A stretch of DNA of 64,000 bases, from the NCBI GenBank assembly GCA_934154515.1, contig CAKPGD010000001.1:2809-66808 (forward strand), in the 5' to 3' direction. Origin of the DNA: an uncultured Clostridia bacterium (lineage in GTDB: Bacteria > Bacillota > Clostridia > TANB77 > CAG-508). Below the pieces are notes generated by a model that ran no database searches, was not told the origin of the DNA, and saw only the letters and a list, made by a program, of their open reading frames with translations. Shown here piece after piece: positions 4,341-33,307 of this stretch. Numbering within the stretch: the stretch's first letter is position 1; the number at the start of each line of letters is the position of its first letter. The position numbers were made by a program, and so were the translations under genes.

Positions 4341-4362
4341 TTTTTCCTCTTTTCTATTTTTA

Positions 4363-4389: not shown

Positions 4390-4409
4390 GTTGTTTATTT
4401 TGTATTAAT

Positions 4410-5921
4410 CTATTTTGTATAATAATTTGCATTTATATCTTCTGCTAAGTGATATTCTCCAATAAAATCTACTACTAGGTTATTTTCCATAGTATATGTT
4501 GGTTCTACAATTACTTTACCTTTTTTATCTATTGCTCCCCATTTTCCGTCTTTTTTTACTGAAGCATATCCATATTTATTTTGCTCTGTTGCATCATCAT
4601 ATATATAATCTACTACAACTATTCCTTTTTCATTTACATATCCATATTTTCCATCTTTTTTGCTTAAATATAATGTACTATTTAATACTTCTTTGCTTTC
4701 TTTTTCTTCTAGCTTAAAGTTATAGTATTTATATTCATTTCCGACTCTTACTCTAATGTAATTTTTATCTGTATTTATTTCAGATATTATTCCTGATGCC
4801 TTTACTTGTAAATCTCTTGATAATATATCTGTTTCTGAATTTTCTTTTTGAGCTCTTATAAAGTCAGCCTCTGACACATATTCTATATATGTATATTCTA
4901 TTGGTAATTTTACTTCATTGTTTATTGAAATTATTCCATATTTTCCATTATTTTTTGCTATATATGTGTCTGTATATGCAAATGTTAAATCTTCATATTG
5001 TGGCTCTATTTTTGTTTCTCCTGCTAATGTTAAAACTCCATATTTACCGTTGTTTTTAACTATAACATTCGAACCATTTATTTGTTTTACATCTTCAAAT
5101 TTTCCTTCTAAATATGTACTTCCTTCGTTATTTACTATTTTCCAAGTATTTTCCTCTTTTACTACATAACTATTATTTCCATATACATTTTTAATCTCAT
5201 TATATTTTGTTTCTAATGCTACTGTTTTATTGTAGTTTATTACTCCGTATTTTCCATTTTCAGCTTTTACTATGAATCCATCTGAAAATTTATCTGTTAA
5301 TGATGATATTTCTGCATATTCATTATTTATAATAATATTTCCTAAAGCATCTACTAGACCTTGTTTTCCATCTTTTATTGTTATTACTACACCTTTGGTT
5401 CCTGTTAGTGCTTTTATTTCGTCATGTTCACATGGAAGAAGTTCTTTACCGTCTAAGTTTATTAGTCCATATTTTCCGTCTTTTTGAACTTTTAACATTC
5501 CACTTTCATACCATAAATTGTTTGATTTGTCGTTATTATAAATTACTTCTACTTTATTGTAATTTGTAAATAATTTATTGTTTTTGTTGTCTAGTGCTTG
5601 TGTTTCAAATGTATTATTCTCGTAATCTACATTTGTAGTACAAATAAACACTGGTTTTGTATTATCTGGTACTATTATCATTTCATCATAACTTGGTTTT
5701 ATTACAACGTTTTGCTTTGTATCTATTACTCCCCATTTCCCGTTTTCATATATTGTGTAATATCCTGTTGGGAATACTTTTTCTTTTATATTTTTATCGC
5801 CTTTTAATAGTTCTTTTATTCCTATTACAAACATTATTATAACAAGTATTGCAACTATTACGGCTACTACTTTTTTCATATTTAGCTTTGGTTCGTTATC
5901 ATATCTTTTTCCTCTACTCAT
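4410..5921 (-). CDS. WG (KWG/Leptospira-type) repeat-containing protein with N-terminal TM anchor
   Basis: 503 aa. Contains many repeats of the form DGKYG(L/V)I(N/D)...G, typical of the WG beta-repeat family. There is a hydrophobic segment after a basic N-terminus. Confidence 0.6.
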   Translation of the reverse strand: MSRGKRYDNEPKLNMKKVVAVIVAILVIIMFVIGIKELLKGDKNIKEKVFPTGYYTIYENGKWGVIDTKQNVVIKPSYDEMIIVPDNTKPVFICTTNVDYENNTFETQALDNKNNKLFTNYNKVEVIYNNDKSNNLWYESGMLKVQKDGKYGLINLDGKELLPCEHDEIKALTGTKGVVITIKDGKQGLVDALGNIIINNEYAEISSLTDKFSDGFIVKAENGKYGVINYNKTVALETKYNEIKNVYGNNSYVVKEENTWKIVNNEGSTYLEGKFEDVKQINGSNVIVKNNGKYGVLTLAGETKIEPQYEDLTFAYTDTYIAKNNGKYGIISINNEVKLPIEYTYIEYVSEADFIRAQKENSETDILSRDLQVKASGIISEINTDKNYIRVRVGNEYKYYNFKLEEKESKEVLNSTLYLSKKDGKYGYVNEKGIVVVDYIYDDATEQNKYGYASVKKDGKWGAIDKKGKVIVEPTYTMENNLVVDFIGEYHLAEDINANYYTK

Positions 5922-18700: not shown

Positions 18701-21061
18701 ATTATATATTTGAAAGTCTCCTCTTATCCATCTGTGTTGTCTTGTTTTATAGCTATTATAGCTTGAAGGATAACCATCCATTAATAGTATGTCTGTGGCA
18801 AGTCCACATCTCAAATAACTTCCTTCTAATAGGTCATGGCTTAGTACTGTGTTTTCTGGTATTTCATCTTTTAATACTTTTGAAAATACTTCTAAGTCAT
18901 AAATTCCTTTTCCAGTAAATATTCCTTCTTCGAAATTGTCTTGGTATATATCTGATATTGCATTCGTGTATGGATCTGTTCCTCCATTTCCTGCAAATAT
19001 TTTTGTAAATAGATTTTTTCTACTGCTTTCTATATTTATTCCTACTCTTGGTTGAATAAGTGCGTGCCCACTTATTACTACGTCTTCTTTTTTGCTTAAC
19101 TCTGGTTTGTTTAATATATGTGCCATCGCTCCTACTAGCTCTAGCCCTGTATTTAGAACTAATTCTGTATCACTATCTAGTGTTATTATATATTTTATTT
19201 TTTGTAATTCTTTTATATTGTTTTCTTTTTTCCATGTTTCTATCGTATTTTCTCTAAATATATTTTTTTCTTTTCCTAGTAAATAGTTGTTAAATTGATT
19301 TAATAAACCTCTTTTTCTTTCCCAACCTAAATAGCATTCTTCTTGTCCATTCCAAAATCTTTTACGATATATGAAGTTAAATTTTGGTAGGATTTTTTCT
19401 TGTTCTTCTTTATTATCGTATTTTTGATTTAATTCTTCTACTTCTTTTATTCCTTCTTCTATTACTTCTTCATCAAATTTTTCTTCTTTATTATTTCCTC
19501 CTGAACAGTCTCCTAATAGCGTAAAATATATATTTTCACTTTTATTTGCTAAATAATATACTTCTAGTTTTTTCATTAGTTCTTCTACTTTTTCTTTTGA
19601 TTTTAATATAGTTGGTATTACAACACAAGTAGCATATTCTTTAGGTATTCCATTATTTTTCATATCTAATTTTACTATCATTTTAGGTTTTACTATTTTT
19701 CCTAATATATATTGAACTATTTGTACAATTATTTCTTGTATTGGTATTAACGATAGTATAAAAAATACTACACTAAGTGTTATATTATTTATTGGTTTTG
19801 CTAATATTGCCCAGATTAGTGTATCTATAATTATTGTGCTTCCCCATATTCCATATATATAAATTTTTGATTTTGTTTGTGCTCTTATTTTTTTGCTTTC
19901 TTGCCCTGTTAATTCTTTTAAAAGTTCTTCTTTTCCATCATCTATTAAATAATACCCAACATGCTTACGTTTTTCTTTGTTTGTATTATTTTCTGATTCT
20001 AATTTGCTTTCTTTTTGTGCTAATTCTAATATTTTATTTGCAATATATATTTCAGATATTTTTGTTTTAGTAGATATTTCTTGGATTTTATTTCTATAAT
20101 ACTCTTTTGATTTATAATCCATTTTTTCATATATTTGTGCTGGATCTTTTTTTAATATTTCTTCTACTCCATTAATGCTTTGAAACACTTGCAAGAAATC
20201 CATTCTAAGTAACTCTTTTATACTTAAGATTGAATTTGCCATACTTACTTTTTTTACTGCTATGTCGAAATGTTCTTTTCTAATTACTTCTTCTGTTGTC
20301 GTTCCCATTTTGTTTACTTCTTCTTCAAGTATGTTTATATAGCTATATGCAGACTTTCCATATTTTTTTAGTCTATATGACATATACTCTATAAAAGGGT
20401 ATTTCATTTCTCCATACCCTTTTACTTTTTGTTTATAGTCTCCTAAATTTTTATATTTCAATTCTTGCTTGTTTTCTACTAGTCTTTCTATTATATTTTC
20501 TACTCTATATTTTTGCATTTGACTAAAATATATTTTTTCACAAATATCTCTTATATTTTGTATTAATGCTATTTGAATAAATAAGCCTATATTCCATATT
20601 TCGTCCATATTTAGACTCTTTTTTCTCTGATAACTATTAACTAATTCTCCTATTGTTTTTGAATCTATGGTGTTGTCTGTATAGGCTGTAATTTCTGTTG
20701 CTAGCACATATATTCTTGCAAATCCTTTATATACTCCATTTGATATTCCTAAAAATTTAACATATTTACTTAATGGCATTTGTTTTTCTACCATTTGAAT
20801 TGTTTCTTCTATTACATAAAAGTTGTCTAACAACCATTCTCCTGCTGGATGTATTGGAATTCCTAATTTTATGTGTTCATTTAGTAATTGATACACTTCT
20901 TCTATTGCTTCAAAATTTTCTTTCAGTTGTGGTATTGGATATGTTTCTTTGCTACTGTTTTGCTGTAATATATGATCTGATGCAATTTTTTCTAAATAGT
21001 TCTCTAATTGACCTTTTTCTAATACTGTTCCTTTTATATTTAATTTTTTATAATTTTTCAT
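12701..21061 (-). CDS. Giant membrane glycosyltransferase/glycoside phosphorylase fusion, cyclic beta-1,2-glucan synthase (Cgs/NdvB)-like (GT84 + GH94)
   Basis: The longest ORF is 2799 aa; the RBS-supported start is the internal Met at 21061 (AAGGGGTGG then 9 nt then ATG). About 6 TM helices flank a GT domain that carries a QxxRW-type motif (RQHRWIRGD). The C-terminal third matches the GH94 cellobiose-phosphorylase-like fold (GWLAYQ...RSGFYQSGGAFGYRDQLQD). Size and architecture match NdvB/Cgs (about 2800 aa). Confidence 0.75.
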   Translation of the reverse strand: MKNYKKLNIKGTVLEKGQLENYLEKIASDHILQQNSSKETYPIPQLKENFEAIEEVYQLLNEHIKLGIPIHPAGEWLLDNFYVIEETIQMVEKQMPLSKYVKFLGISNGVYKGFARIYVLATEITAYTDNTIDSKTIGELVNSYQRKKSLNMDEIWNIGLFIQIALIQNIRDICEKIYFSQMQKYRVENIIERLVENKQELKYKNLGDYKQKVKGYGEMKYPFIEYMSYRLKKYGKSAYSYINILEEEVNKMGTTTEEVIRKEHFDIAVKKVSMANSILSIKELLRMDFLQVFQSINGVEEILKKDPAQIYEKMDYKSKEYYRNKIQEISTKTKISEIYIANKILELAQKESKLESENNTNKEKRKHVGYYLIDDGKEELLKELTGQESKKIRAQTKSKIYIYGIWGSTIIIDTLIWAILAKPINNITLSVVFFILSLIPIQEIIVQIVQYILGKIVKPKMIVKLDMKNNGIPKEYATCVVIPTILKSKEKVEELMKKLEVYYLANKSENIYFTLLGDCSGGNNKEEKFDEEVIEEGIKEVEELNQKYDNKEEQEKILPKFNFIYRKRFWNGQEECYLGWERKRGLLNQFNNYLLGKEKNIFRENTIETWKKENNIKELQKIKYIITLDSDTELVLNTGLELVGAMAHILNKPELSKKEDVVISGHALIQPRVGINIESSRKNLFTKIFAGNGGTDPYTNAISDIYQDNFEEGIFTGKGIYDLEVFSKVLKDEIPENTVLSHDLLEGSYLRCGLATDILLMDGYPSSYNSYKTRQHRWIRGDFQIYNWTKENIINRKEIKKKNPLNILCRYKILDNLIREILPITSVLLIIIFAISRGLKIKYSSIYMAIAIISIIMPTIIDIINKIVFRKVGNKYQKRFESTINSFLASIIRGVIAIATLPDKAYTSLNAMIKSIYRMKISNKHLLEWITSEESEKLSKQDLKTYYKNMFSNVVLGILGIIYFLALKNVLILILAILWLITPAFMCYISKTKKEEKAIEKVVKEDKEYLLEIGRRTWKFFKENINEKNNFLPPDNYQEDRTEKIVSRTSSTNIGLGLLTVIASYDLGYENLEDTLLLLNKMLTTIEKLQKWNGHLYNWYNTKTLEPLIPRYISTVDSGNFIEYVYVLKEFYKEIIEKIGKNEKLLELIPNWVNKPINEISIANADFSKLYDKEKNIFSIGFNIEENKLTDSYYDLLASEARGASFVAIAKKDVPEKHWYNLNRTLTVLGEYKGLISWSGTAFEYLMPNIIMKKYKGSLLDESCKFMISNQMQYAKKLEIPWGFSETAFNVKDLNNNYQYKAIGIPWLGLKRGLEDDIVVASYASALALKEIPNKVIENFKELEKYKMYGKYGFYESLDFTPRNLSKGKKYEVVKTYMAHHQALILLSINNLFNDDILVKRFNENPEIEAVDILLQEKMPEDMIITKEEKKKPEKIKYMDYESNATRVFNKINEKRNIINAIANDKYLIVMDQKGNGFSRLDDVLINRYKPLSDEIQGIVFYLKNIRNNKIWTSNYMNYLPKPDKYEVSFSEDVSKIRRLDGSVETKLKVTVAPEEAVEIRNIELKNYGLEEETLEITTSLEPVLSKAIQDYAHPAFNNLFLTFEYLEDENILVVKRRKHTAEEKEMYMAVTLYTNNETIGELEYEIDKEKFYGRGNINLPIMVENSKPFSKSTNLVTDPIVAIKRTIKIEPEKTSNLSLIISASQERKTAIQNVKEYSNEEKIKKTFELSKARVEAEARYLEIKHKDIENYQKMLGYILYQNPLKKLYLNKLPEKDYSQENLWKYGISGDLPIVLLEMQEVNETYILEEILKAYEFYRSKNINIDLVILDKEENKYERYVKESIINGILNQNLSYMQNIRGGIFIIDDLESKELLEYRANLIIDSSKGPLERQLKDIEEEYEDTLKEIGYEVPKKIILEEEKTSSLLEAENLKYFNEYGGFSKDGKEYLIRVNKERRLPTVWSNVMANSNFGTLVTEAQGGFTWSKNSRLNRMSSWSNNQVIDNPSEVIYLKEETTSKTWSLGLNPMPDNNDYLVTYGFGYSKYSHTSMEIAQNLNIFVATENNVKINLLNLKNLSQNRKKVKLVYYIKPVLGEDEINSNGYINLEFVKNSNTILVKNEISNKNEYAYVSCSEEIESYTGSRKFFIGNGTFNNPEALRKVSLNNENSLGIDNVIAIQINVELEAFESKDISFIFGMEEDKITSLDNSYRFAKISNCIDELDKVKKYWSNLLGKLQVKTPVESFNILLNGWLAYQAIVCRLWGRSGFYQSGGAFGYRDQLQDTLGIKYLDAEFMKKQIIKHAAHQFIEGDVEHWWHEENRKGIRTRFSDDLLWLVYLTAEYINQTGDYTILDIQVPYVQGAILEEGVDERYDLYEESNIKESIYEHCIRAIEKSMNFGEHGLPKMGSGDWNDSMSTVGNKGKGESVWLGFFLYDVLNKLIPIMEAKKEKIEKEQQIIEQQERQQEKRQENQQEKQQENQQKNQQESQQESQQEIANKEEIITQEQKLNETIARYKQTTEKLKKALNTAGWDGRWYKRAYTDDGEELGSLQNEECRIDGISQSWATISKAGDNDKKFISMESLENHLIDRENGIIKLLDPPFEKSKLEPGYIKAYLPGTRENGGQYTHGAIWAIIAEAMLGFGDKAVDLFRMINPIEHSKTMESANKYKVEPYVISADIYGHKNLAGRGGWTWYTGSASWMLKAGIEYILGLKIENNTLKIQPCIDKTWKEYSIHYQYKDTIYNIKVKNPDEKNTGVEIFKVNGQEIEQKELKLIDDGKIYDIEVIM
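13580..13692 (-). repeat. In-frame 15-nt tandem repeat (about 7 units) encoding (QQE[N/S/K]Q)n inside the Cgs-like gene
   Basis: Direct repeats ttcttgttgaytttc on the plus strand. They translate as EQQERQQEKRQENQQEKQQENQQKNQQESQQESQQE. Confidence 0.8.
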
Positions 21062-21141
21062 AAAAATTTTTCCACCCCTTGGCATATGTTTTATACACAT
21101 ATTGTTTGCCAGTTGTGGAAAATTTATGCATTATTTTGTTT

Positions 21142-22194
21142 CTATTTATATTTTTCTTGTATATTTTTTATACTTTCGTAGCGGTTCTTTAGTATGTCTA
21201 AAAATACACTTGCTATTTGTGGATCAAATTGTGTTCCACTGCATCTTTCTATTTCATTTATAACATCTTCTAGTGGAAGTGCATTTCTATATGTTCTTTT
21301 TGATGTCATTGCATCAAAAGTATCTGCAACTGCTGCAATTCTTGCAACTAATGGTATTTCTTCACCTTTTAATTGACTTGGATATCCTCTTCCGTCAAAT
21401 CTTTCGTGGTGATGTAATACTATTGGAATTATATCTTTAAATGTTTCTGCATTTCCTAAGATATGTACTCCTATTGAAGGGTGATTTTTTATTTGTGAAT
21501 ATTCTTCATCATCTAGTTTTGATTCTTTTAATAGAATACTGTCCGGAATTCCTATTTTTCCTATGTCGTGGAATAATCCGCCTATTTTTAATATATGAAG
21601 AGTATTTTCGTCTAAGCCCATTTTTTCTCCAATTAATACAGAGAACTCTGATACCCTGTCTGAATGACCTCTTGTATATGGGTCTTTTGCTTCTACTGTA
21701 TATCTTAATATTTGTATTGTATCTAAATATGCTTTTTCTAATTCTTCTTTTTTGTTTCTAAGTTCTTCATTTATTTGGCTTATTATATGCATTTGGTCAA
21801 CAGATTTTAATCCAGATTCTATTAATAATAGTAATTGATCAAAATTATTGCTTTTTTCACAATATCCTTGTATTTCTAGTTCTTTTAATGTTTGTAATGG
21901 TGGAGCTAAATCTTTATGCCCTGTTAGTAGCAAAATATATAATTCTTTATTAAATTTTCTTATTTCTTCAACTACTTGGTCACCATGTATTGGGTCCATT
22001 ATAAAGTCTAGTAGTAATAAATCATAATGATTCTTTTTTAATTCTTCTATCGCTTCAAGTGGATTTGAAAAGCAGATTAAATCATATCCAGATCTTCTAA
22101 GAACTACTTTTAATGAGTCTAAGATACCTGAATCATCATCTACTGCCATTATTTTATATGCTGAAGTTATTTCTTCTTTCATATATTTTCTCAT
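21142..22194 (-). CDS. Response regulator with REC domain fused to HD-GYP c-di-GMP phosphodiesterase domain
   Basis: 350 aa. N-terminal receiver (MAVDDDSGIL...LLLDFIMDP). HD motif (GGLFHDIGKIG) and HHERFDGRGYP HD-GYP signature. Confidence 0.85.
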   Translation of the reverse strand: MRKYMKEEITSAYKIMAVDDDSGILDSLKVVLRRSGYDLICFSNPLEAIEELKKNHYDLLLLDFIMDPIHGDQVVEEIRKFNKELYILLLTGHKDLAPPLQTLKELEIQGYCEKSNNFDQLLLLIESGLKSVDQMHIISQINEELRNKKEELEKAYLDTIQILRYTVEAKDPYTRGHSDRVSEFSVLIGEKMGLDENTLHILKIGGLFHDIGKIGIPDSILLKESKLDDEEYSQIKNHPSIGVHILGNAETFKDIIPIVLHHHERFDGRGYPSQLKGEEIPLVARIAAVADTFDAMTSKRTYRNALPLEDVINEIERCSGTQFDPQIASVFLDILKNRYESIKNIQEKYK

Positions 22195-22219: not shown

Positions 22220-24025
22220 TTATTGTGGTAATACTATATTAAATGTTGTACCAACTCCTACTTTAGATTTAAAGTTTATGTCTCCATTGAAGTGTCCTTT
22301 TATTGTTGAGTATGACATAAATAATCCTAGTCCTGTTCCATTATGTCCTTTTGTTGTAATCATTTCATTAAACAATTTTTTCTGTATTTCTTCTGGTATT
22401 CCACTTCCGTGGTCTATTACAGATATTATTATATTATTTTTTTCTTTATCTATAACTAAATCTATAACTTGGTCTGGTTTTCCGCCATATGATTGTATTG
22501 CATTTGATATTAAGTTATTAACTACTTGTACTAAACTGTTGATGTTTCCTATTATTTTAGTATGATCTTCTACTTTTTTAACTACATTTAATTTTATAAA
22601 TGCATTTTTTAATTCATGTTTCATTAATATATTAACTCTATTTAGTAGCTCTTCTACTTCAAATATCATTGTAGCATCTTCTGTCATATTAACTGCTTGA
22701 CCTTTTACAGCAGTTATGATGTCTGACATATATGAATCATATGAGTTTACTTTATTTACCCATTCTAGCATATCTTTTGCTATTGCTTGGTGGTCTTCTT
22801 TTGTAACATCTGGGTCATTTATAGATTTTTGATATTCTGTTATTAAATCTGTAAGTCCTTCCATTGCACCAGAAATTGACATTATTGGTGTTTTTAAGTT
22901 GTGTGCTATTCCACCTATCATTTGTCCTAATGAAGCAAGTCTCTCACGTTCCATTAATATGTCTTGATTTTGTTTTAAAACCTCCATGTCAAGTATATGT
23001 TGTGTTGTATCTTTAAATAGTATTAGCGTTCCTACATATTTTCTTTCTTTATAAATTCCTGTTATTTCTATATTGAAATATTTATTTTGTTTCTTTAATA
23101 TAGCTTCTGCTATATGTAGTTTTTCGTCATGTTTTATTGTTTTAAAATATTCTCCTAGCTTTTTCTTTTTTACTGTAATGCTTTTGGAAATTTCTATTTC
23201 TTCAAATTGTTTTCCTATTAATTTCTTTCTATCTATTTTAAATATTTTTTCAAATGTTTTATTACAGTTTGTTATAATTTCATCTTTGCTTAATACAACA
23301 TATGCATCTGAAATCTGGTCAACTATTGTTTTTAATGCTATTGGAGCAACGTCTAAGAAATCATATCTAAATATTGCAATAGCAAAACATAAGAATGTTG
23401 TCATGAATGAGATTGGTGTTATATATATGTTCATATCAAATACTGTCATTCCTAATATATTTACTATTAGCGGTACTAATGCACCTATTGCCATTAGTAT
23501 AAATTGTTTAGAAACTCCTTTTGAATCCTTCATAGAATTTTTTAATAGAATTATAATATCTATTATGAATAATCCATATGTATATACAGAATGGACATAG
23601 AAATATGGTCCAAATACTGTAGTTTCAGGATTTACAGAATATACTTTATAAAACAAATTGTGAAATTTATTTGTCCATAATACCAGCATTGTTGTTACTG
23701 GTATTATAAACAATAATAATTGGCTTTTCTTGTATTTCTTGTCTTCTGATAAGTTATACGCTATGAAGAATAATATTACTGGCATAAATACAACAAATAT
23801 GTATATAAAGTATTCTGGGTATATAGGGCTAATTGTTGGCACATAATTTATGATTAAAATTTGAGCTATTAGACCTACACACCAAAACATCATAGAATAC
23901 AACAAATAGTTAAATGTTGTTTTTAATTTTGAGTTCGTTGTCTTTTTCTTATTTATGTAAAAAATTGTTATAGCCTCTATTATGATTGTTATTAGCAATC
24001 CAATAAAGAATTCAAAGTATTTCAT
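22220..24025 (-). CDS. Sensor histidine kinase with N-terminal 7TM sensor domain, PAS-like region, HisKA and HATPase_c
   Basis: 601 aa. About 7 N-terminal TM helices. H-box LASLGQMIGGIAHNLKTP. C-terminal N/G boxes (NLISNAIQ...DHGSGIP...GTGLGL). Preceded by a GGAGGA RBS. Confidence 0.85.
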   Translation of the reverse strand: MKYFEFFIGLLITIIIEAITIFYINKKKTTNSKLKTTFNYLLYSMMFWCVGLIAQILIINYVPTISPIYPEYFIYIFVVFMPVILFFIAYNLSEDKKYKKSQLLLFIIPVTTMLVLWTNKFHNLFYKVYSVNPETTVFGPYFYVHSVYTYGLFIIDIIILLKNSMKDSKGVSKQFILMAIGALVPLIVNILGMTVFDMNIYITPISFMTTFLCFAIAIFRYDFLDVAPIALKTIVDQISDAYVVLSKDEIITNCNKTFEKIFKIDRKKLIGKQFEEIEISKSITVKKKKLGEYFKTIKHDEKLHIAEAILKKQNKYFNIEITGIYKERKYVGTLILFKDTTQHILDMEVLKQNQDILMERERLASLGQMIGGIAHNLKTPIMSISGAMEGLTDLITEYQKSINDPDVTKEDHQAIAKDMLEWVNKVNSYDSYMSDIITAVKGQAVNMTEDATMIFEVEELLNRVNILMKHELKNAFIKLNVVKKVEDHTKIIGNINSLVQVVNNLISNAIQSYGGKPDQVIDLVIDKEKNNIIISVIDHGSGIPEEIQKKLFNEMITTKGHNGTGLGLFMSYSTIKGHFNGDINFKSKVGVGTTFNIVLPQ

Positions 24026-24047: not shown

Positions 24048-27000
24048 TTATAAATTTTCTAGTACTTTTCTTATGTATTCTATATCAATTTCTGGCCAGT
24101 CAAATCCAGCTTCTTTAAAAAATTTAAGTGTATTTTTATTTGAAATTACTAAATTTGTTTTATATACGAAGTTATCATCTTTGTCTAAGTCATTTACCAA
24201 TACATTTACATTATTAGTTCTTGACTCGTCATATAGCCATTTTTTTAGTTTCTTTTTAAATACATAATCTTCTACTATTTTTATGTCTATTTTTAATTGT
24301 TTTAATATTTCATATAATTCTTTTATATAAATGTGTTTTGAATTATATAAGTGCATTATTGATATTGGGAAATTATAGTATTCCATACATACTATAATAG
24401 CTTCTGCTATTTTATCAACTGGACTAAATTCTGCGTAATTTTCCATTATTGATTTTGGAATCATTCCTAATGCTAAAAATGCTTTTAATCTATTTAAAAA
24501 TGCATTATCTTCACTATTTTCTTGGAATTTACCATCTGAATATCTATTAGTTATATTTCCTATTCTTAGTATTATTCCTTTTAGTCTTTTACTTGCTAAT
24601 TCTTCTAAAATTAATTTTTCTGCTTCAAATTTACTTCTAACATATACGTTTTCTAGTGTTTGATTTACAAATAGTTTATCTTCTCCATATTCAATTACTT
24701 CGTCTGGTCTGAAGCTATTTGCTAATCCTACCATTGTATTTCCAGATACACTTACTGTTGAAGTTTGTATGAATTCTTTATTGAATTTTTCACAAAATTC
24801 TATAATGTTTTTTACACCTGTTACATTTATTTTTTCGAATACATTGTAATCTCCATAGTGTTTTACTAATGCAGCACAGTTTATAACTTGTTCTACATTT
24901 TCTCCTAATTGATTATATTGCTCTTCTGAAAGTCCATAATTTTTGTAAGTAATATCTCCGTCTATTACAAATATTCTTGTTCCTAATAAATTACTTAAAT
25001 CACTTCCAAAGTAATATTTGAATTTATTTCTTAATTTGTTTTCTGGTGATGTACTTGGGTCTTTTCTAATTAAACAATATATTTTTATAGAATCTATTTT
25101 TAATAATTCTGCTAATACATGAATTCCTAAGAATCCTGTTGCACCTACTAAAAGCACATTTTGTATTTTTCTTGGTCTTACTCTTATTTTATTTTCTTCT
25201 GCATTTTTCTTTATAAAGTTATTTATTTTTTCAAAGTCTTTTTCTGTATATTGTGGGTATAAAGCTTCTTCTTTGTTTTCTTCTAAGAATTTTGCTAATT
25301 CTCTAATTGTGTTATTCTTAAATATGTCTCCATAGTTAATGTTATACCCTATCTTCATAATTTCTAGTTGTAGTTTTAATGCGCATAAAGAGTCTCCGCC
25401 TATATCAAAGAAATTATCATCTATACTTATTTTTTCTAGCGAAAGGATTTCTTCCCATATTTTTACTAATTTTCTCTCTAATTCTGTTTCTGGTGCAATT
25501 ATTTCTTTTTCCTTTATTATTGGTAAAGGTAGTTCTTTTCTATCTATTTTTCCGTTTGGTGTATATTTAAAGTCTTCTAATTGTACTAGGTATGATGGAA
25601 CCATATAATTTGGTAAACTCATAGATAGTCTATTTTTTAAATTAGATATAGATACTCTACCTGTTGCTACAAAATATCCACATAAGATATCTCTTCCATT
25701 TACATTTTTTACAGCTACTACACTTGATGAAACTCCTTTATATGCACATATAGCATTTTCTATTTCTCCAAGTTCGATTCTTAGTCCTCTTATTTTTACT
25801 TGGAAATCGTTTCTTCCTAAACAGTCTATTTCTCCATTTGGAAGTACTTTTACTAAGTCTCCTGAATTATATATTCTGGAATTATTATATTCTATATATC
25901 TTTCTGATGTAAGTTCTGGTTTGTTTATATATCCTATTGAAACTCCGTCTCCTCCTATGAATAATGTTCCTATTACACCTTGTGGAACTTGATTCATATC
26001 ATTATCTAATACATATATTTCTGTATTTGCTATCGGTGTTCCTATTGTTATTTTTTTATTTAATGAAGTTATTTCTTTTAATGTTGAGCCAACTGTTGTT
26101 TCTGTTGGTCCATACATATTAAATACTTGTGCATCTGTTATATTTCTAATCTTTTTGAATAAGTCAAGTGTAAATGGTTCTCCTGCAAGTGATATTATTT
26201 TCATTTTTTGGATATATTCTATTGCTGTGTTTTCTGACATTAGTAGCTTAAATTTTGAAGGTGTTGTTTGTATTACTTCAACATTATTTTTTAAGCATAA
26301 TTCATTTAAAAGTATTGGGTTGTTTTGCTCTTCATTATTTGCTAAAACAACTTTCATTCCTGTACATAATGGTAATAAGCTTTCTAATACAAATATATCA
26401 AAACACATTGTGGTGATATTTACTATTGTTTTATCTTTTAGTGGCATTCTATCACACATTCCATAAATGAAGTTTACTACGCTTGATTGTTTTAATATAA
26501 CTCCTTTTGGTCTTCCTGTTGAGCCTGATGTATATATCATATATGAAACATCTGAAGATTTTGTATCTGTATCAAATGGTTTATATTCATCATAAGAATT
26601 TTCATCATCTACACATAAAGAGTCTACTTCTATTCTATCTTCGTAATTTTTTTCTGTAAGAACTAGTCCTACTTCACTATCTTCTAGAATATATTTTACT
26701 CTATCAACAGGGTATTTTGGATCGATTGGTAAATATCCTGCCCCCGCTTTTAAAATTGCAAACATAGAAACTATAAGTTCTGCTCTTCTGTCCATCATAA
26801 TTCCTATTACTTTATATTTCTTTTTAGAAATATTATTTTTATATGCTGGCATATTTATAATATGGTTTGCTAGTTTATTTACTTTTGTTTCTAATTCTTT
26901 ATAAGTATATTTCTCGTCTCCAAATACAAGTGCTATTTTGTCTGGTGTTTCTAATACTTGTTTTTCAAATAAATCTATTATTCTAAGTTCTTTTGAATAT

Positions 27001-30000
27001 TCCAAAGTTGGATACATTTTTGGAATTTCTGTAAGTATTTTTATCTTAGAAATTTGTGTTTCTGGTTCTTCTATAATACTGTTTACTATATTTTTGTAGC
27101 AGTCTAAGAATGTGCTCATAAAGTTTTTACCAAATAATTTTGTACAGTATTCTAGTCTTATATTATATGATTCTTGTGTTGGTGTTATTTCAAGTGATAT
27201 GTCAAACTTAGATGTTTTGTTTTCTGGTATAACATATGTACTGCTTAACCCGTTTAGGTCTAATTTTGGTAGTCCTTCACTCTCATATATAAACATCGTA
27301 TCAAATACAGGATTTCTACTATTATCTCTTGCTATATTTAAGTTTTTAACTAGTTCATCAAATGGATATGTTTGATGTTCAAATGCATTCATACAATTAT
27401 TTTTTACTTGATTTAGAAAGTCTATTGCCGTGCTTGAAGATTGTATATTTTGTTTTAGTGCGATTGTATTAACAAACATTCCAACTATATCTGAAAGTTC
27501 TGCATTGTTTCTTCCTACTGTTGGTGTTCCTACTACTATTTCATTTTGCATTGTGTATTTATAAAGAAGAATATAATAGCTTGAAAGTAAGAACATATAT
27601 GGTGTAATTCCTTTACTTTTACAGAATTCATTTATTTTATCTACATTTTCTAGTTTTTCAAATATGCTTTCTCCTTCTTCTGATTTTATACTAGCTCTTT
27701 CAAATTCAGTTGGCATATTTAATAAAGGCACTCCATTTTCAAAAGTAGATAACCAATATTCTTTATCTTTTTCTTCTATTTTTTCTGATATTGCATAATC
27801 TATATAATCAATTTTATTTTCTTTTAGTTCTTTTTCGTTATATAAGTCACACAATTCTTTTGCAAATATTCCTATTGATGTTCCATCACAGATTATATGA
27901 TGCATATCCATTTGTAATAATGCTTTTCCGTCAAACTTATCTAACTCAATATGCATTAAAGGTGCTTTTCCTAAGTCAAATGGTTTTACAAAGTCTTCAT
28001 TTTTGCTGTTTGATACCTTTAATTTAAAGTCTATTTTTTCTACCACTTTTTGAACAACATCTGTATCTTTTAACTCAAAATATGTTCTAAAAGCTTCATG
28101 TCTGTTTATTATTGTTCCTATTGCATTTTCTAATTTTTTTACATCTGGTACTTTGTCGAAAAGTATTCCAAATGGTGTATTATATGCTAATGACTCTTCT
28201 TGCATACTTGCAGTATAGTATATTCTTCTTTGTGCTGAAGATACTGGATAATATTCTGCTTTTTCATGTTTTTTTATTTTTTCTGTTTTCTCTTCTGTTA
28301 CTTCTTTTGTATCAATAAATTCTGACAATTCCTTAATTGTTGGATATTCGAAAATGTCTTTTACTTCTATTTTTACTTTTAAATCATTATATATTTCTGA
28401 AACTAACATTATAGAGCATAGTGAGTCTCCACCTAAATCGAAGAAATTTGCTAATGTACTTATTTTGTTTAGTTTTAAAACTTTTTTCCAGATTTTTTCT
28501 ACTTTTTTCTCTGTGTCTGTTTCGCTTTTTATAAATTCTTTATCTTCTACTATTATTTCTGGCAAATTTTTGCTATCTACCTTTCCATTTGCAGTTATAG
28601 GTAGGTGGTCCATAAATACTATGTGAGATGGTACCATATAGTTTGGTAATTCTTTTGCAAGTGCTTTTTTTAATGTTTTTTCTGTTAATTCACTGTCTGT
28701 TGTCTCTATGTATGCACATATACTGTCTATATCATTTACTTTTTTTATTACTGTTATGGCATTTTTTATATCTTCTAATTTTATTATTTTTTCTGTTATT
28801 TCGTCTAATTCAATTCTTAGTCCATGTAATTTTATTTGATTATCTTTTCTTCCATAATAAACTAGTTCTCCGTTTTTATTTAGCTTTGCGATGTCTCCTG
28901 TTCTATATACCCCATTAAATCTTTGTTTATTTACATATCCTAAACCTACTCCATCTCCTGTTATTACAAGTTCCCCTGGTATATCTATTGGTAGTATATT
29001 TTCATCTTTGTTCATTATATACATTTTTACATTTAAGTATGGAGTTCCTATTGTTATATCATTTTCATCTATAACGTGTTTATTTGAAGCACATGCACAT
29101 GTCTCTGAAGGTCCATAGCCATTATGTATTTCTGCATTTGTTGCTTTTCTTAATTCTTTATATAGACTTGGCTTAAATACTTCTCCACCTAATTGAATTA
29201 CTTTTACATCTCTTAAACATTCATTTTCATTTAATAATAATGATATTTTTGATGGTGTAGATACTATGAAATCTATATTATTTTCTATTATTAATTTACT
29301 TGTAAATGCTGGTATTTTTTGTTCATCTTCATCTGCAAGTATTACTGTTTTTCCTGATAATATTGAAAGAAAATTTTCAACTACAAACATATCAAATGAA
29401 ACAGTACTTGTACTTAAATAGTTCTCACAAATATTAGTATGTAATATTTTTTTGAAGCTGTTTACTAAATTTATAACACTTAGTCTTCTTAATTCAACAC
29501 CTTTTGGCATACCTGTTGAACCAGAAGTATATAATACACAAAATCTATCTTCATTTGAGCTTTTTACTTTTGGTTGTTTATTACTATAATTTTCTAAGTT
29601 TGTTATATCAACTGTTTCGTAATTCATATATAAGTTTGTAATTACTATTGGACATTTTGCATTTGTTAACATATAGTTTACTCTATCTTCTGGAAGATTT
29701 GGGTCTATTAGCATATATGCTGCTCCCGTTTTTAATACTCCCCACATTGCTATATGTAAATCTAATGACCTATTTAGCATTATTCCTACTACATCATCTT
29801 TTTTTATTTGTTTGCTTAATAATATATTAGCAACTTGATTTGATTTTTCATCTAACTCGCCATATGTTAATGTTTTATCTTTAAATTTTGCACATATTTT
29901 ATTTTTATTTTTTCTTACTTGTTTTTCAAAAACTTCTACTATTGTTTGTTTTTTATTATATTTATATTCTGTTGCATTAAATTTATTTATTATAGATTTT

Positions 30001-31319
30001 TCTTCTTTTGTTATAACTTCTATATTTTTTATTACTGGATTTTTTAAAACACTTTTTGCCATATTTATTATTCTTTTGTGTAAGTTTTCTATATCTTCTT
30101 TTGTAAATTTGCTTGTTTGATAATTATAAAATATATTCACTTTTCCTGTGTTGTCCATATCGTAAAAATGTACTTCAACAGGATTTGCAACATTAGAGTT
30201 TGGTACCCAGCCTGATTCATAATCTATATCACTTGTTTTTTTGTTATCTCTTGCATTTTGGTAAGATAATACAAAATCATATAAATTTTCAGACATATCA
30301 AATTTTTCTTTAATGTCTTTTAATAGTTCTAAATATGGATATTTTTGATGCCTATATATTGCTGTTTGATTTAATTCTACTTGTTTTAAAAATTTTGAAA
30401 ATTCTAAATTAGAATTTATATCCATTTTAAAAGGTACATTGCTTACAAACATTCCTATTATTTGTTTTTCATTAAAATTTCTTCTGTTAAGTACTGGAGT
30501 TCCTATTATCGCTGATTTTGTATCATTTATTTTTGCAAGATAAATTAGGTATATCGCCATAAAAAATGTATATACTGAGCAATTATTTTCTTTACTAAAG
30601 CTAGCAATTTTTTCATATAAATTTTTATCTATTTCAAAAGACTCTCTGCTTCCTTCGCAACTATTTATATCTTTTCCACTTGCTTTTTTATCTTTATAGA
30701 TATGTGTAATTACTGGTTCCTTTTCGAAAACTTCATTCCAAAAAGTTCTATCATTTTTAATTTTTGTACTTTGCATATATTTTTGAGAATCTATTATATA
30801 TTGTTCATATTTTGTATAATCTTCGAAGGCATAATTACTTTTTACTAGCATAGAATATATTTCCATTAGTCTAGAAACAAGTAATCCCATTGACCAAGCA
30901 TCACAAATTAAATGGTGAAATACTCCAATTATTCCACCCGTTCCATTTGGATACTTAAAAAGTGTAAATTTGAATAAATTTGAATTAATCATTTTAAAAG
31001 GCGCTTTTAACAAGCGAGAGCACAATTTATTTGTTTCTTCTATATTTTTTGTTTCAATTATTTCTGTTTTAAATTTTTTATATGTTGACACGTGCTGTAC
31101 TGCTTCATCATCTTTTATTTCAAATTGGAATCTCATACTATCTGTATGTTCTACAAATATGTTTGCTGTCTTTTCTAGTAGCTCAAAGTCTACTTTTTCT
31201 TTTATGTATATATAACCACATATATTGTTAACACTCGTATTTGAATAAAACATTTCTGTGTTCCATATGTTTTTTTGTTGATTTGTTAAGTTTAAGGTAT
31301 TTTCCATATTATCCAACAT
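24048..31319 (-). CDS. Dimodular nonribosomal peptide synthetase, C-A-T-C-A-T-R (terminal thioester reductase)
   Basis: Longest ORF 2439 aa; probable start at Met17 (31319) or Met21 (31307). Two HHxxxDG condensation motifs (HHLICDAWS, MHHIICDGTS). Two adenylation domains (YTSGSTGMPKGV/NGYGPSETCA/YRTGD/GRKDNQIKLHGLRIEL and YTSGSTGRPKGV/NMYGPTETTV/YNSGD/GRNDFQVKIRGLRIEL). Two PCP motifs (FFDLGGDSL, FFDIGGDSL). C-terminal NAD(P)-binding reductase (VLLVGATGFLG...YVRSK). Confidence 0.9.
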   Translation of the reverse strand: MLDNMENTLNLTNQQKNIWNTEMFYSNTSVNNICGYIYIKEKVDFELLEKTANIFVEHTDSMRFQFEIKDDEAVQHVSTYKKFKTEIIETKNIEETNKLCSRLLKAPFKMINSNLFKFTLFKYPNGTGGIIGVFHHLICDAWSMGLLVSRLMEIYSMLVKSNYAFEDYTKYEQYIIDSQKYMQSTKIKNDRTFWNEVFEKEPVITHIYKDKKASGKDINSCEGSRESFEIDKNLYEKIASFSKENNCSVYTFFMAIYLIYLAKINDTKSAIIGTPVLNRRNFNEKQIIGMFVSNVPFKMDINSNLEFSKFLKQVELNQTAIYRHQKYPYLELLKDIKEKFDMSENLYDFVLSYQNARDNKKTSDIDYESGWVPNSNVANPVEVHFYDMDNTGKVNIFYNYQTSKFTKEDIENLHKRIINMAKSVLKNPVIKNIEVITKEEKSIINKFNATEYKYNKKQTIVEVFEKQVRKNKNKICAKFKDKTLTYGELDEKSNQVANILLSKQIKKDDVVGIMLNRSLDLHIAMWGVLKTGAAYMLIDPNLPEDRVNYMLTNAKCPIVITNLYMNYETVDITNLENYSNKQPKVKSSNEDRFCVLYTSGSTGMPKGVELRRLSVINLVNSFKKILHTNICENYLSTSTVSFDMFVVENFLSILSGKTVILADEDEQKIPAFTSKLIIENNIDFIVSTPSKISLLLNENECLRDVKVIQLGGEVFKPSLYKELRKATNAEIHNGYGPSETCACASNKHVIDENDITIGTPYLNVKMYIMNKDENILPIDIPGELVITGDGVGLGYVNKQRFNGVYRTGDIAKLNKNGELVYYGRKDNQIKLHGLRIELDEITEKIIKLEDIKNAITVIKKVNDIDSICAYIETTDSELTEKTLKKALAKELPNYMVPSHIVFMDHLPITANGKVDSKNLPEIIVEDKEFIKSETDTEKKVEKIWKKVLKLNKISTLANFFDLGGDSLCSIMLVSEIYNDLKVKIEVKDIFEYPTIKELSEFIDTKEVTEEKTEKIKKHEKAEYYPVSSAQRRIYYTASMQEESLAYNTPFGILFDKVPDVKKLENAIGTIINRHEAFRTYFELKDTDVVQKVVEKIDFKLKVSNSKNEDFVKPFDLGKAPLMHIELDKFDGKALLQMDMHHIICDGTSIGIFAKELCDLYNEKELKENKIDYIDYAISEKIEEKDKEYWLSTFENGVPLLNMPTEFERASIKSEEGESIFEKLENVDKINEFCKSKGITPYMFLLSSYYILLYKYTMQNEIVVGTPTVGRNNAELSDIVGMFVNTIALKQNIQSSSTAIDFLNQVKNNCMNAFEHQTYPFDELVKNLNIARDNSRNPVFDTMFIYESEGLPKLDLNGLSSTYVIPENKTSKFDISLEITPTQESYNIRLEYCTKLFGKNFMSTFLDCYKNIVNSIIEEPETQISKIKILTEIPKMYPTLEYSKELRIIDLFEKQVLETPDKIALVFGDEKYTYKELETKVNKLANHIINMPAYKNNISKKKYKVIGIMMDRRAELIVSMFAILKAGAGYLPIDPKYPVDRVKYILEDSEVGLVLTEKNYEDRIEVDSLCVDDENSYDEYKPFDTDTKSSDVSYMIYTSGSTGRPKGVILKQSSVVNFIYGMCDRMPLKDKTIVNITTMCFDIFVLESLLPLCTGMKVVLANNEEQNNPILLNELCLKNNVEVIQTTPSKFKLLMSENTAIEYIQKMKIISLAGEPFTLDLFKKIRNITDAQVFNMYGPTETTVGSTLKEITSLNKKITIGTPIANTEIYVLDNDMNQVPQGVIGTLFIGGDGVSIGYINKPELTSERYIEYNNSRIYNSGDLVKVLPNGEIDCLGRNDFQVKIRGLRIELGEIENAICAYKGVSSSVVAVKNVNGRDILCGYFVATGRVSISNLKNRLSMSLPNYMVPSYLVQLEDFKYTPNGKIDRKELPLPIIKEKEIIAPETELERKLVKIWEEILSLEKISIDDNFFDIGGDSLCALKLQLEIMKIGYNINYGDIFKNNTIRELAKFLEENKEEALYPQYTEKDFEKINNFIKKNAEENKIRVRPRKIQNVLLVGATGFLGIHVLAELLKIDSIKIYCLIRKDPSTSPENKLRNKFKYYFGSDLSNLLGTRIFVIDGDITYKNYGLSEEQYNQLGENVEQVINCAALVKHYGDYNVFEKINVTGVKNIIEFCEKFNKEFIQTSTVSVSGNTMVGLANSFRPDEVIEYGEDKLFVNQTLENVYVRSKFEAEKLILEELASKRLKGIILRIGNITNRYSDGKFQENSEDNAFLNRLKAFLALGMIPKSIMENYAEFSPVDKIAEAIIVCMEYYNFPISIMHLYNSKHIYIKELYEILKQLKIDIKIVEDYVFKKKLKKWLYDESRTNNVNVLVNDLDKDDNFVYKTNLVISNKNTLKFFKEAGFDWPEIDIEYIRKVLENL

Positions 31320-31335
31320 CCTTTCATATACGGTT

Positions 31336-31364
31336 ATTATACAAAATTCTACAAATAAATGCAA
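31336..31364 (-). promoter_or_regulatory. SigmaA-type promoter of the NRPS operon: -35 TTGCAT, 17-bp spacer, extended -10 TGtATAAT
   Basis: Read on the minus strand. It lies inside the 5' end of the longest predicted NRPS ORF, and an AAGG RBS and in-frame Met codons follow downstream. Confidence 0.5.
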
Positions 31365-31461
31365 CATTTAAAGGAAAATATGTAAATTTATTTTTATACC
31401 TTTTTATCTACTTTTTTTATTTAATTTTTTACCTAAATTTTTATTCAATTTTACACTTTTT

Positions 31462-32185
31462 TTAATTATAAAAATATGAATTTATACCATTAAATATCCC
31501 CCATGCTAATTTATTTTGATAGTTGTCATCTAATAGCAGTTTTTCTTCTTCTTGATTTGAAAGAAAGCCACATTCTACTATAGAAATTGGTATTTCTACA
31601 TGTTTTATTATATATACATTTTCTAGTTTCATTGCTACTCTTTTGTTTTCTTTTTGTATTGCACTATTTAAATTTTCTTGCAATTCTTTTGCAAGTTTTG
31701 TACTATTTTCGTCGCCTTGTTTATAAAAGCATTGCCATCCCCAATACTGTTCTTGTGGAATTTTATTTAAATGTATTGAAATAAATATATCTGCTGAGTA
31801 TTCATTTCCTATTTTTACTCTATTATGTATGTCTGATAACTTTTTTTGTTTTAATGTTTTACTGTCTAAATCGTATATTGCATTTTCATCTGAACGAGTT
31901 AATATTACTGTTGCTCCTGATTGTTCTAATAAATTTTGTAATTTTAATGCTATTTTTAAATTAGTTTGTGCCTCTGTTGTTCCTGTACTACTTTGTGCAC
32001 CGCTCATCTGGTATTCCATGTCCTGCATCTACTACTATTACCTTGTTGGTTACTGGAGTAGCTACTGTTTCAACTGTATTTATTTTTTTATTATTTTGAC
32101 CTATGCTTGCTACAAGTATTGCAACAAATACAAAACTTAATAACATTATTATTCTCTTTTTTCTTATTATAAACATAACAAACAC
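31462..32185 (-). pseudogene. cwlD: cwlD-like N-acetylmuramoyl-L-alanine amidase (Amidase_3) split by a frameshift
   Basis: The N-terminal fragment (31988-32185: signal/TM + VIVVDAGHGIPDE) and the C-terminal fragment (31462-32028: GAQSSTGTTEAQTNLKIALKLQNLLEQSGATVILTRSDE...) are consecutive parts of one amidase in different frames. The frame switch falls near 32015-32030. Confidence 0.7.
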
Positions 32186-32231: not shown

Positions 32232-33164
32232 CTATTTGAACTCTTTTCTTCTATCTATTACATATGTACTTCCTTGTATTGTTTTTGCTAAATGTTTTAC
32301 TTCTGCCCCTGCTTCTCCTATTTCTAACACATTATCGAATTTTCCTTTTACTACTTCTACTACTCCTATCGATATTGATGTAAGTGGGAATTGTTCTATT
32401 ACTCCTTTTCTGTTTTCTACTTCTATGTACCCTTTTTCTTTATCTTCTTTGGTATAATACTTTCCAACTTTTGCATCGAATTCTACAACTATATTTTGAC
32501 AGATGCTCTCACAGTCTTTTCCAGATATTATTCCTATAAAGTCATCTCCTCCAATGTGTCCTACAAAGCTGTCCTGATATTCTTTTGTATGCACATTTCT
32601 TAATATTACATCTGCTGTAAATTTTATTATTTCATCTCCTTTTAAGAATCCATACACATCATTATATGCTTTAAAGTTATCTAAATCGAAATACATCATA
32701 GTAAATTCTTCTTCATTTAGAAGTCTTTTTTTCATTTCTGCTTGTATTTGTACATTTCCTGGAAGTCCTGTTAGAGGACTTACTCTTCTATTTGCATATA
32801 ATAAGCTTAATACATTTTGTATTGTATAATATAAATATTCTTTATCTACTGGAACTCTTATATAATGTGCTATTCCTATTTCAAGCATTTTTAGTTTGTG
32901 GTCATGTTCTTTTCTTGATGTTACAATTATAATAGGTGTAATACTATTGTTTTCATCTGCCTTTATGTTTTTGCACATTTGTACTCCGTCTTCTAAAAAA
33001 CTATCTTCATTTATTATTATTAAAGATGGTATATTTCTTAATGCTGTATCTATATTGTTGGTTGTTACTCTTGTTACTTTATATTCTTTTTCTTCTTTAA
33101 AAATTTCTTTTATAATTTTCTCTAATTTATGTCCATCATCTATTATATATATTTCTTGTAACAT
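32232..33164 (-). CDS. Response regulator REC-GGDEF with variant GGDDF motif
   Basis: Receiver domain (IYIIDDGHKL...). GGDEF domain hallmarks (PLTGLPGN, DLDNFKAYND). Active-site motif reads GGDDF. RBS-supported start at 33164; longest ORF starts at 33185. Confidence 0.8.
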   Translation of the reverse strand: MLQEIYIIDDGHKLEKIIKEIFKEEKEYKVTRVTTNNIDTALRNIPSLIIINEDSFLEDGVQMCKNIKADENNSITPIIIVTSRKEHDHKLKMLEIGIAHYIRVPVDKEYLYYTIQNVLSLLYANRRVSPLTGLPGNVQIQAEMKKRLLNEEEFTMMYFDLDNFKAYNDVYGFLKGDEIIKFTADVILRNVHTKEYQDSFVGHIGGDDFIGIISGKDCESICQNIVVEFDAKVGKYYTKEDKEKGYIEVENRKGVIEQFPLTSISIGVVEVVKGKFDNVLEIGEAGAEVKHLAKTIQGSTYVIDRRKEFK

Positions 33165-33307
33165 ATTCTTTTGTTCCTTTCTCATGTAAGATTTATTTTT
33201 TATTAACTTTTTATCTCTGGTCTTTTTTATCTTATTTCGCTTTTTTTAGCTTATTATTTTTATTATTCTTATTTTGCTGTTTTTACTTTTTTCTTACTTT
33301 TATTTTT

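Follow-up and report, generated by a model that had tools for sequence, protein, structure and literature searches.

A stretch of 64,000 nucleotides from an uncultured Clostridia bacterium (contig CAKPGD010000001.1; the whole of this stretch is called the window here) carries on its minus strand a gene for a dimodular non-ribosomal peptide synthetase (NRPS). A preliminary description of the locus had regarded this NRPS as an orphan. That label does not survive comparison with related loci, because the gene heads a conserved operon in which two partners lie downstream, a sensor histidine kinase that joins a seven-helix transmembrane (7TM) region to a PAS domain, and a response regulator that joins a REC domain to an HD-GYP domain; both downstream genes are conserved companions of the synthetase. 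The rest of the window, with 27% GC, is housekeeping Clostridia DNA (spoIIE, mreBCD, minC, a penicillin-binding protein gene, prfA and pcrA). Taken alone, the NRPS is a further member of a known family, and its biosynthetic logic is not new in kind. The conserved and co-diversifying cassette of NRPS, sensor kinase and HD-GYP regulator is, as far as can be told, undescribed.

Architecture of the synthetase

The NRPS reading frame runs from 24048 to 31367 on the minus strand, or 2439 aa if counted from the first ATG, as had been observed before, and an open frame of this length within DNA of 27% GC is not due to chance. The start is most likely at 31307 (Met21), which would give a protein of 2419 aa, because the first ATG (31367) falls in the -35 region of a promoter-like element, TTGCAT-17-TGTATAAT, and a ribosome-binding site precedes Met21. 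The public gene call for an identical protein (P0001) is likewise the 2419-aa form. Domain residues are numbered here on the 2439-aa form, with C standing for condensation, A for adenylation, T for carrier and R for reductase domains.

24048..31307, minus strand: NRPS gene, C-A-T-C-A-T-R, 2419 aa (Pfam, motifs, database gene call)
31336..31364, minus strand: putative promoter, TTGCAT-17 nt-TATAAT with an extended -10 TG, read by eye
31319-31325, minus strand: ribosome-binding site GAAAGGA of the NRPS, 11 nt 5' of the ATG at 31307
30033..31304, minus strand: C1 (aa 22-445), N-terminal condensation domain, HHLICDA, presumed N-acylating starter (Pfam Condensation, motif)
28581..29930, minus strand: A1 (aa 480-929), adenylation domain, code DMVVQGGACK (Pfam AMP-binding with C-terminal subdomain)
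28314..28505, minus strand: T1 (aa 955-1018), carrier domain, GGDSL, Ser982 (Pfam PP-binding)
27027..28259, minus strand: C2 (aa 1037-1447), condensation domain, HHIICDG (Pfam Condensation)
25530..26969, minus strand: A2 (aa 1467-1946), adenylation domain, code DILQSAMVGK (Pfam AMP-binding with C-terminal subdomain)
25284..25472, minus strand: T2 (aa 1966-2028), carrier domain, GGDSL, Ser1993 (Pfam PP-binding)
24057..25238, minus strand: R (aa 2044-2437), terminal thioester reductase, GATGFLG and YVRSK (Pfam NAD_binding_4 at 2073-2324)

Pfam places the domains, with E-values from 1e-172 to 1e-25, in the order that the preliminary description had read from core motifs. The two full A-T modules and the terminal reductase named there are borne out equally well: no core motif is missing, and each A, T, C and R domain is intact. 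A motif scan located A3 (TSGSTGxPK), the A4 Asp and the A10 Lys (NGKVD, NGKID) in both A domains, and all 65 relatives in an alignment share the same catalytic residues in C1, C2, T1, T2 and R. The R domain matches an NRPS PCP-R didomain (6vtj, 3.7e-58), the reductase of AusA (4f6c, 5.2e-34) and MxaA (1.2e-26). Judged by these features, the NRPS is very probably an active reductase-releasing dipeptide synthetase.

Stachelhaus specificity codes, which had been considered beyond reading by eye, were extracted by alignment of the A domains to the GrsA-PheA sequence. The procedure is validated by its recovery of DAWTIAAICK at the canonical positions of GrsA-PheA and of textbook Gly, Val, Thr and Pro codes from relatives. 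Codes were obtained for both A domains, DMVVQGGACK for A1 and DILQSAMVGK for A2. A full-text search for A-domain codes returned an assignment for neither of them, and the one assigned code that it did find, DVWYLGGICK, belongs to relatives and corresponds to Met (PMC12283262). Codes of the A1 type, DMV[L/V]QGGACK, are common within the family. A2 is 71.5% identical to the A2 of a relative with the canonical Gly code DILQLGMVWK and differs from it at three places in the pocket, with L to S at position 299, G to A at 301 and W to G at 331, which marks it by sequence as a Gly-lineage domain with an altered pocket. Some kinase-linked relatives from the human gut carry DVWYLGGICK, or the one-residue variant DVCYLGGICK, in module 1 and DIYTVGIILK in module 2, a combination that would fit a Met-Phe product if DIYTVGIILK specifies Phe. 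Across 85 loci at least 35 different A1/A2 code pairs occur, and one and the same code can occupy module 1 or module 2.

The synthetase is not rare, with at least 750 homologues at E<1e-50 in the protein database. Of the best 120 homologues nearly all share its domains and a length of 2400-2550 aa, a small number have three modules, and almost all come from metagenome assemblies; the NRPS belongs to a large, metagenome-only family of low-GC gut Clostridia. The identical protein is present in other samples, the nearest other species is 67% identical, and a collection of species-representative genomes held a single relative, in an 'uncultured Clostridia' metagenome-assembled genome from rabbit gut (62% identity). 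The best NCBIfam model is AusA (NF047350) at 1562.8 bits, a score below that model's curated cut-off of 2500, and assignment as an AusA equivalog was rejected. Trimodular versions of about 3500 aa (C-A-T-C-A-T-C-A-T-R) are represented by P0038, P0042, P0052, P0053, P0056 and P0057. In the single trimodular locus examined (P0052, at locus L012) the same kinase, as two open reading frames (ORFs), and the same regulator stand behind the NRPS, and the cassette may thus make use of tripeptide aldehydes too.

Linkage and co-variation of synthetase and sensor

The two genes downstream of the NRPS, with their domains, are laid out as follows.

22220..24025, minus strand: sensor histidine kinase, 601 aa, H-box IAHNLKTP, starting 22 nt past the NRPS stop and preceded by an AGGAGG site
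23336-24025, minus strand: HisKA_7TM region of the kinase (aa 1-230), seven predicted transmembrane helices
22991-23335, minus strand: PAS domain of the kinase (aa 231-345), from the domain layout
aa 346-601 of the kinase, minus strand: complete DHp/CA core, from the domain layout
21142..22194, minus strand: response regulator, 350 aa, REC (aa 15-125) and HD-GYP (aa 165-327), starting 25 nt past the kinase stop and preceded by an AGGAGG site

No terminator is predicted between the NRPS, kinase and regulator genes, and co-transcription of the three is proposed from this arrangement. The REC domain of the regulator matches Pfam and the HD-GYP motifs are intact (HDIGK and HHHERFDGRGYP), so that the protein is a predicted phosphodiesterase of cyclic di-GMP (c-di-GMP). 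Because its output is enzymatic and it has no DNA-binding domain, the kinase/regulator pair does not amount to conventional cluster-specific control of transcription. An AlphaFold model of kinase residues 1-345 shows seven helices and a PAS fold, with a mean confidence score (pLDDT) of 81 and values mostly of 80-95 in the 7TM part; in a fold search with this model the PAS part found solved relatives, and the 7TM bundle had no significant match. Near the operon, Rfam returned no c-di-GMP riboswitch or other element at gathering score, and at E<=0.1 nothing except an unrelated match, resembling a small RNA, inside a helicase gene. This match is to the Clostridium difficile small RNA n00280 (57517-57611, minus strand); it scores 43.9 bits (E 6e-4), below the gathering score of 65.2, and lies within the PcrA/UvrD helicase gene, and the Rfam family is likewise described within a helicase gene.

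Linkage of the three genes was examined in both directions. In the forward direction, 14 loci with NRPS homologues of 38-100% identity, one of them trimodular, all have a HisKA_7TM kinase directly downstream (14/14), and in 13 of the 14 a REC-HD-GYP gene follows close behind, even the most distant one (L012) within about 2 kb of where the kinase gene ends. Genes further out vary from locus to locus around the cassette. In the reverse direction, a scan of metagenomes with a kinase alignment yielded 80 loci, many from human gut, in which the kinase is 49-64% identical. Of the 73 loci whose upstream sequence extends to 600 bp or more, 72 have an NRPS ORF that terminates where the kinase begins, and in the remaining locus (L050) the NRPS stands behind a split kinase, which brings the total to 73/73. 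The regulator is present in 68 of the 70 loci with enough downstream DNA, co-directional in 61 and convergent in 7.

The convergent arrangement of the REC-HD-GYP gene and the kinase is found in L036-L038, L040, L048, L050 and L053 (compare L033-L035). Between L034 and L038 the flanks are 98-99% identical, and the NRPS-kinase block, about 90% identical, is inverted relative to the regulator and the flanks. An invertible switch was considered for these loci and rejected, as the 'inverted repeats' on either side resemble the hairpins of terminators and not sites for a recombinase; the NRPS-kinase block looks to have undergone a fixed inversion. No inverted repeat surrounds the window's regulator gene. 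The NRPS is split into two ORFs in L029, L048, L050, L055-L057, L059 and L086, a state reproduced in independent assemblies for L055-57, and the kinase is split into two in L008, L012 and L050. Loci with split genes, like the outlying locus L094 discussed below, could be decaying or 'signal-blind' variants.

The evidence that binds synthetase to sensor most closely comes from pairs of contigs of apparently the same species, in which the flanks are 97-100% identical in nucleotide sequence and the kinase core and regulator 99-100% identical in amino acid sequence. In such pairs, wherever A1 or the NRPS as a whole has been exchanged, divergence also occurs in the kinase and is confined to its residues 1-340. 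Amino acid identities are as follows.

L044 versus L055-57: C1 100%, A1 44% (Val code versus DAQFLGGICK), A2 100%, R 96%; 7TM 61%; kinase core 99%; regulator 100%
L063/L071 versus six others: A1 43%; 7TM 82%, PAS 50%; kinase core 99-100%; regulator 99-100%
L042/43 versus L051/60: whole NRPS replaced; 7TM 55%; kinase core 99%; regulator 99%

Sliding-window nucleotide identity between L044 and L056 resolves two patches, one that comprises A1-T1 and the start of C2 (46-76% identity) and another that comprises kinase residues 1 to about 180 (59-67%), separated by about 4 kb of DNA that is 95-100% identical and surrounded by flanks of about 100%. Amino acid differences end abruptly near kinase residue 340, at the PAS/DHp boundary. 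The 78 same-species pairs follow the same pattern: where the codes differ the sensor is less than 90% identical in 29 of 30 pairs, and of the 48 pairs with matching codes, 41 have a sensor identity of 97% or more. When alleles whose codes differ are compared, in four species groups, the sensor has diverged in six out of six cases, and the alleles are not chimeras, because they recur in independent assemblies. As regards the NRPS itself, the unit of recombination between L044 and L056 spans nt 3900-5700 (NRPS aa ~460-1060), that is, A1-T1 and the N-terminal part of C2, and this module-1 swap unit matches 'exchange unit' boundaries from NRPS engineering.

Family-wide distances point in the same direction, with Spearman coefficients of 0.70-0.77 between the 7TM region and C1, C2 and R of the NRPS, 0.57 between the 7TM region and the kinase core, and 0.79 between the kinase core and the regulator. 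A partial Mantel comparison of sensor distance with code distance is significant and counts as weak evidence, owing to rate differences and shared ancestry. The argument for co-variation is carried by the same-species mosaics rather than by the family-wide correlations. Co-variation of synthetase and sensor in these relatives suggests that the peptide is a cell-to-cell signal.

The same polymorphism might arise if the kinase responds to some general stimulus, for instance disturbance of the membrane or a molecule from the host or the diet, and if the variable region marks a recombination hot spot, or surface-exposed loops under selection by phage or immunity, with A-domain swaps hitch-hiking. 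Reviews record no known ligand for HisKA_7TM (PMC6944256; PMC5847659), which would suit such a sensor, as would the restriction of structural matches to the PAS part of the model and the existence of two counter-examples to strict co-variation. Hitch-hiking, however, would have to account for two patches that change jointly across about 4 kb left at 95-100% identity, in independent assemblies and four species groups, and for differences that stop sharply at the PAS/DHp boundary. A generic cue accordingly seems a rather improbable explanation, and sensing of the NRPS product by the kinase is the reading developed below.

Predicted product and signalling model

The nature of the product turns largely on C1. 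No carrier domain lies upstream of C1, its active site (HHLICDA) is intact, its catalytic His152 and Asp156 are invariant in all 65 relatives, and the domain is kept in every member of the family, with a motif that is always HHxxxD[A/S] and never has the G found in C2. The missing upstream carrier, the invariant His and Asp and the family-wide motif argue for an active and specialised domain, for which N-acylation would be the obvious role, and it is probable, on these grounds, that C1 N-acylates the first amino acid. The best match of C1 among solved structures is TycC (2jgp, 4e-33), an ordinary LCL-type C domain; weaker matches are rhizomide RzmA (7c1h, 3e-13, partial), which we take to be an acylating starter C domain, and CDA-C1 (4jn3, 2e-6). 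By established NRPS logic, C1 would attach a fatty acyl group to the first amino acid, C2 would couple the second, and the terminal NAD(P)H reductase would free the T2-bound thioester as an aldehyde to yield an N-acyl dipeptide aldehyde, two- and four-electron reduction being indistinguishable by sequence. Two products of this kind are on record (PMC8518294; PMC12327764): Clostridium BGC0001686 gives N-octanoyl-Met-Phe-H, and ruminopeptin is a Leu-Glu aldehyde with an N-acyl group.

Without acylation by C1, a free dipeptide aldehyde would form and cyclise to a (dihydro)pyrazinone. The corresponding alternative holds that C1 is vestigial or otherwise used and that the aldehyde cyclises and oxidises to an aureusimine-like pyrazinone, which would be the active molecule, as a signal or in some other role. 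Pyrazinones are known bacterial signals (DPO and AI-3), AusA is the best NCBIfam model of the NRPS (1562 bits) and C1 is nearest to LCL-type structures. The C-A-T-C-A-T-R order has, in addition, been called the canonical pyrazinone architecture (PMC10979478). A vestigial C1 is nevertheless difficult to reconcile with the invariance of His152 and Asp156 and the retention of the domain throughout the family, an N-terminal C domain without an upstream carrier has no peptidyl donor, and N-acylated products are reported for the Clostridium and Ruminococcus relatives (PMC8518294). A non-acylated product is thus unlikely.

In the proposed circuit the amphiphilic product, probably N-acylated, would be the ligand of the 7TM/PAS sensor of the kinase; the kinase would phosphorylate the REC-HD-GYP regulator, and the activated HD-GYP domain would hydrolyse c-di-GMP and so cause its level to fall. 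The full model, in which the kinase detects a dipeptide aldehyde that is released by reduction and probably carries an N-acyl group, with a drop in c-di-GMP as the outcome, and in which the cassette of the window would behave as those of its relatives appear to, is given a probability of roughly 0.5. Its extension is more tentative, namely that the reductase-terminated NRPSs of low-GC gut Clostridia might constitute an NRPS-based pherotype system of quorum sensing, with dipeptide-aldehyde autoinducers (probably N-acylated) that each have a dedicated 7TM-PAS kinase acting on an HD-GYP protein, and with specificity that diversifies within species by exchange of A-T units and replacement of the sensor.

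The chief competing view is that the product is a secreted inhibitor of host or competitor proteases, and that the kinase and regulator are mere syntenic neighbours or act as indirect regulators. Characterised members of the same biosynthetic logic do yield protease-inhibiting aldehydes (PMC8518294; PMC12327764), and a gene for an HtrA-like Trypsin-PDZ protease lies near the cassette in 37 related loci. Mere synteny, however, sits poorly with a two-way linkage that is kept despite rearranged flanks, and without functional coupling there is no easy account of why A1 and sensor segments, which are not contiguous, were replaced together while the rest of the DNA stayed identical. An inhibitor with incidental neighbours is on balance doubtful, and the roles of inhibitor and signal are in any case compatible and not mutually exclusive. 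The HtrA-like gene, found in L008, L010-L012, L094 and some 30 others and absent from the window, is directly upstream and divergent where gene calls exist, and it is a suggestive neighbour because peptide aldehydes inhibit serine proteases. An AMP-binding ligase of 572 aa, a possible supplier of the acyl donor, occurs in eight related loci and is likewise absent from the window.

Several points weigh against the signalling model. The characterised relatives are reported as protease inhibitors, not signals (PMC8518294; PMC12327764), and C1 is closer to LCL-type domains than to known lipid-starter C domains. The literature searched contains nothing that links this type of NRPS to a kinase, an HD-GYP protein or quorum sensing, and an earlier mention in Guo 2017 or in Schneider and Balskus 2018 is possible. 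In the forward comparison, locus L094 lacks a regulator gene, and the ATPase domain is missing from its kinase. The co-variation was observed in relatives, and the window's own species is represented by a single allele (the window, L002 and L003). In one counter-example, L064 versus L084, A1 differs and the 7TM region is still 90% and the PAS domain 99% identical; in another, L092 versus L084, the codes are shared and the PAS domains are 72% identical. The pairs of loci are not phylogenetically independent, and the family-wide correlations are given little weight because sensors usually outpace kinase cores in evolution and because of shared ancestry.

The 64-kb window, moreover, contains no Sfp-type phosphopantetheinyl transferase (PPTase). 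As the preliminary description had stated for the vicinity of the NRPS, no MbtH, thioesterase or Sfp-type gene was found, here across the whole window, and the lone PPTase is of the AcpS type (125 aa, 3963-4340). This absence, taken together with the frameshifted NRPS or kinase genes of several relatives, could indicate that the NRPS is silent or non-functional in its host for want of an Sfp-type enzyme. The PPTase survey is confined to the 64-kb window, however, and the NRPS gene found there is undamaged and recurs with 100% identity in further samples, with catalytic residues that are conserved family-wide. Silence of the gene is very improbable, and a functional synthetase that supplies a ligand for the kinase continues to be preferred.

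Among the surroundings of the cassette is a gene for a giant protein of 2799 aa with GH94 and glucoamylase domains (12701-21100, minus strand), which resembles cyclic beta-1,2-glucan synthase. It starts 41 nt past the regulator stop without a predicted terminator and may be co-transcribed with the cassette in this species only. Upstream of the NRPS, two genes away, lies a REC-GGDEF-type regulator (32232-33185, minus strand) whose motif reads GGDDF and whose match to the Pfam GGDEF domain is only partial, a second c-di-GMP-related gene nearby; other species do not keep it beside the cassette. SdrD_B, DUF11 and CarboxypepD_reg domains occur in two proteins of about 1650 aa encoded in tandem (35326-40236 and 40256-45256, minus strand), likely surface adhesins, where GC rises slightly to about 31%. 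The large neighbouring genes were considered as megasynthases and rejected as not biosynthetic: the giant resembles a GH94 glucan phosphorylase, and the other two encode the SdrD_B surface proteins. The contig L002, from another sample of the same species (99.7% nucleotide identity along 18 kb), has an insertion of 7.5 kb (L002:1772-9296) at the 5' end of an Amidase_3 gene; it comprises two large serine recombinases and small genes and is missing from the window at about 32004-32012.

Significance and relation to known systems

The dipeptide aldehydes of gut Clostridia are abundant, and their native role has so far been treated as that of host-protease inhibitors. If a dedicated sensor kinase does co-evolve with the synthetase as proposed, and works with the c-di-GMP phosphodiesterase, these compounds would be bacterial signals, and in uncultured anaerobes of the gut non-ribosomal peptide chemistry would be tied to the control of lifestyle by a second messenger. 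The mosaic alleles would in that case represent natural, productive A-T exchanges matched by a change of receptor, which would be useful for NRPS engineering, and the cassette would offer a route to ligands for the orphan HisKA_7TM class of sensors. The cassette makes the native function of these gut metabolites directly testable. Should the coupling prove incidental, what remains would be another uncharacterised NRPS from a family that is already known.

That family, the dipeptide-aldehyde NRPSs of gut Clostridia, was reportedly described by Guo et al. in 2017 and is said to include Clostridium BGC0001686. Like the NRPS of the window, BGC0001686 and RupA, the ruminopeptin synthetase, are small and open with a C domain, which is followed by two A-T modules and, at the end, a reductase, a likeness judged from published descriptions. 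The window's NRPS is at most 67% identical to any database protein from another species, and its close relatives are all metagenomic. Kinase and HD-GYP partners, and their co-variation with the synthetase, are not mentioned for gut dipeptide-aldehyde NRPSs in the literature searched. AusA (PznA), the aureusimine synthetase of Staphylococcus aureus, is also dimodular with a terminal reductase, and the R domains are homologous. The architecture of AusA is A-T-C-A-T-R, and the alignment to the AusA model starts at residue 397 of the window's NRPS, leaving C1 (aa 22-445) essentially unmatched; we know of no kinase or HD-GYP pair associated with AusA.

With respect to circuit logic, the closest analogue is the Rpf/DSF system of Xanthomonas, in which a synthase (RpfF), a membrane kinase (RpfC) and a REC-HD-GYP protein (RpfG) lead likewise to hydrolysis of c-di-GMP. 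The synthase of the window is an NRPS, whereas RpfF is a crotonase, and its kinase is a classical 7TM-PAS histidine kinase, whereas RpfC is a hybrid kinase; the resemblance is thus one of analogy, with homology limited to the REC-HD-GYP protein. With respect to polymorphism, the parallel lies instead with the pherotypes of agrBDC and comQXP: members of one species differ strongly, and in step, in the gene that makes the signal and in the kinase's N-terminal membrane sensor, but share a conserved kinase core and regulator. The relatives of the window's cassette share this pattern with agrBDCA of staphylococci and comQXPA of Bacillus, with sharp mosaic boundaries. Unlike those systems, in which the output is a transcription factor, the cassette has an HD-GYP enzyme as its output, and its signal would be non-ribosomal where theirs is a ribosomal peptide, with specificity changed by exchange of A domains.

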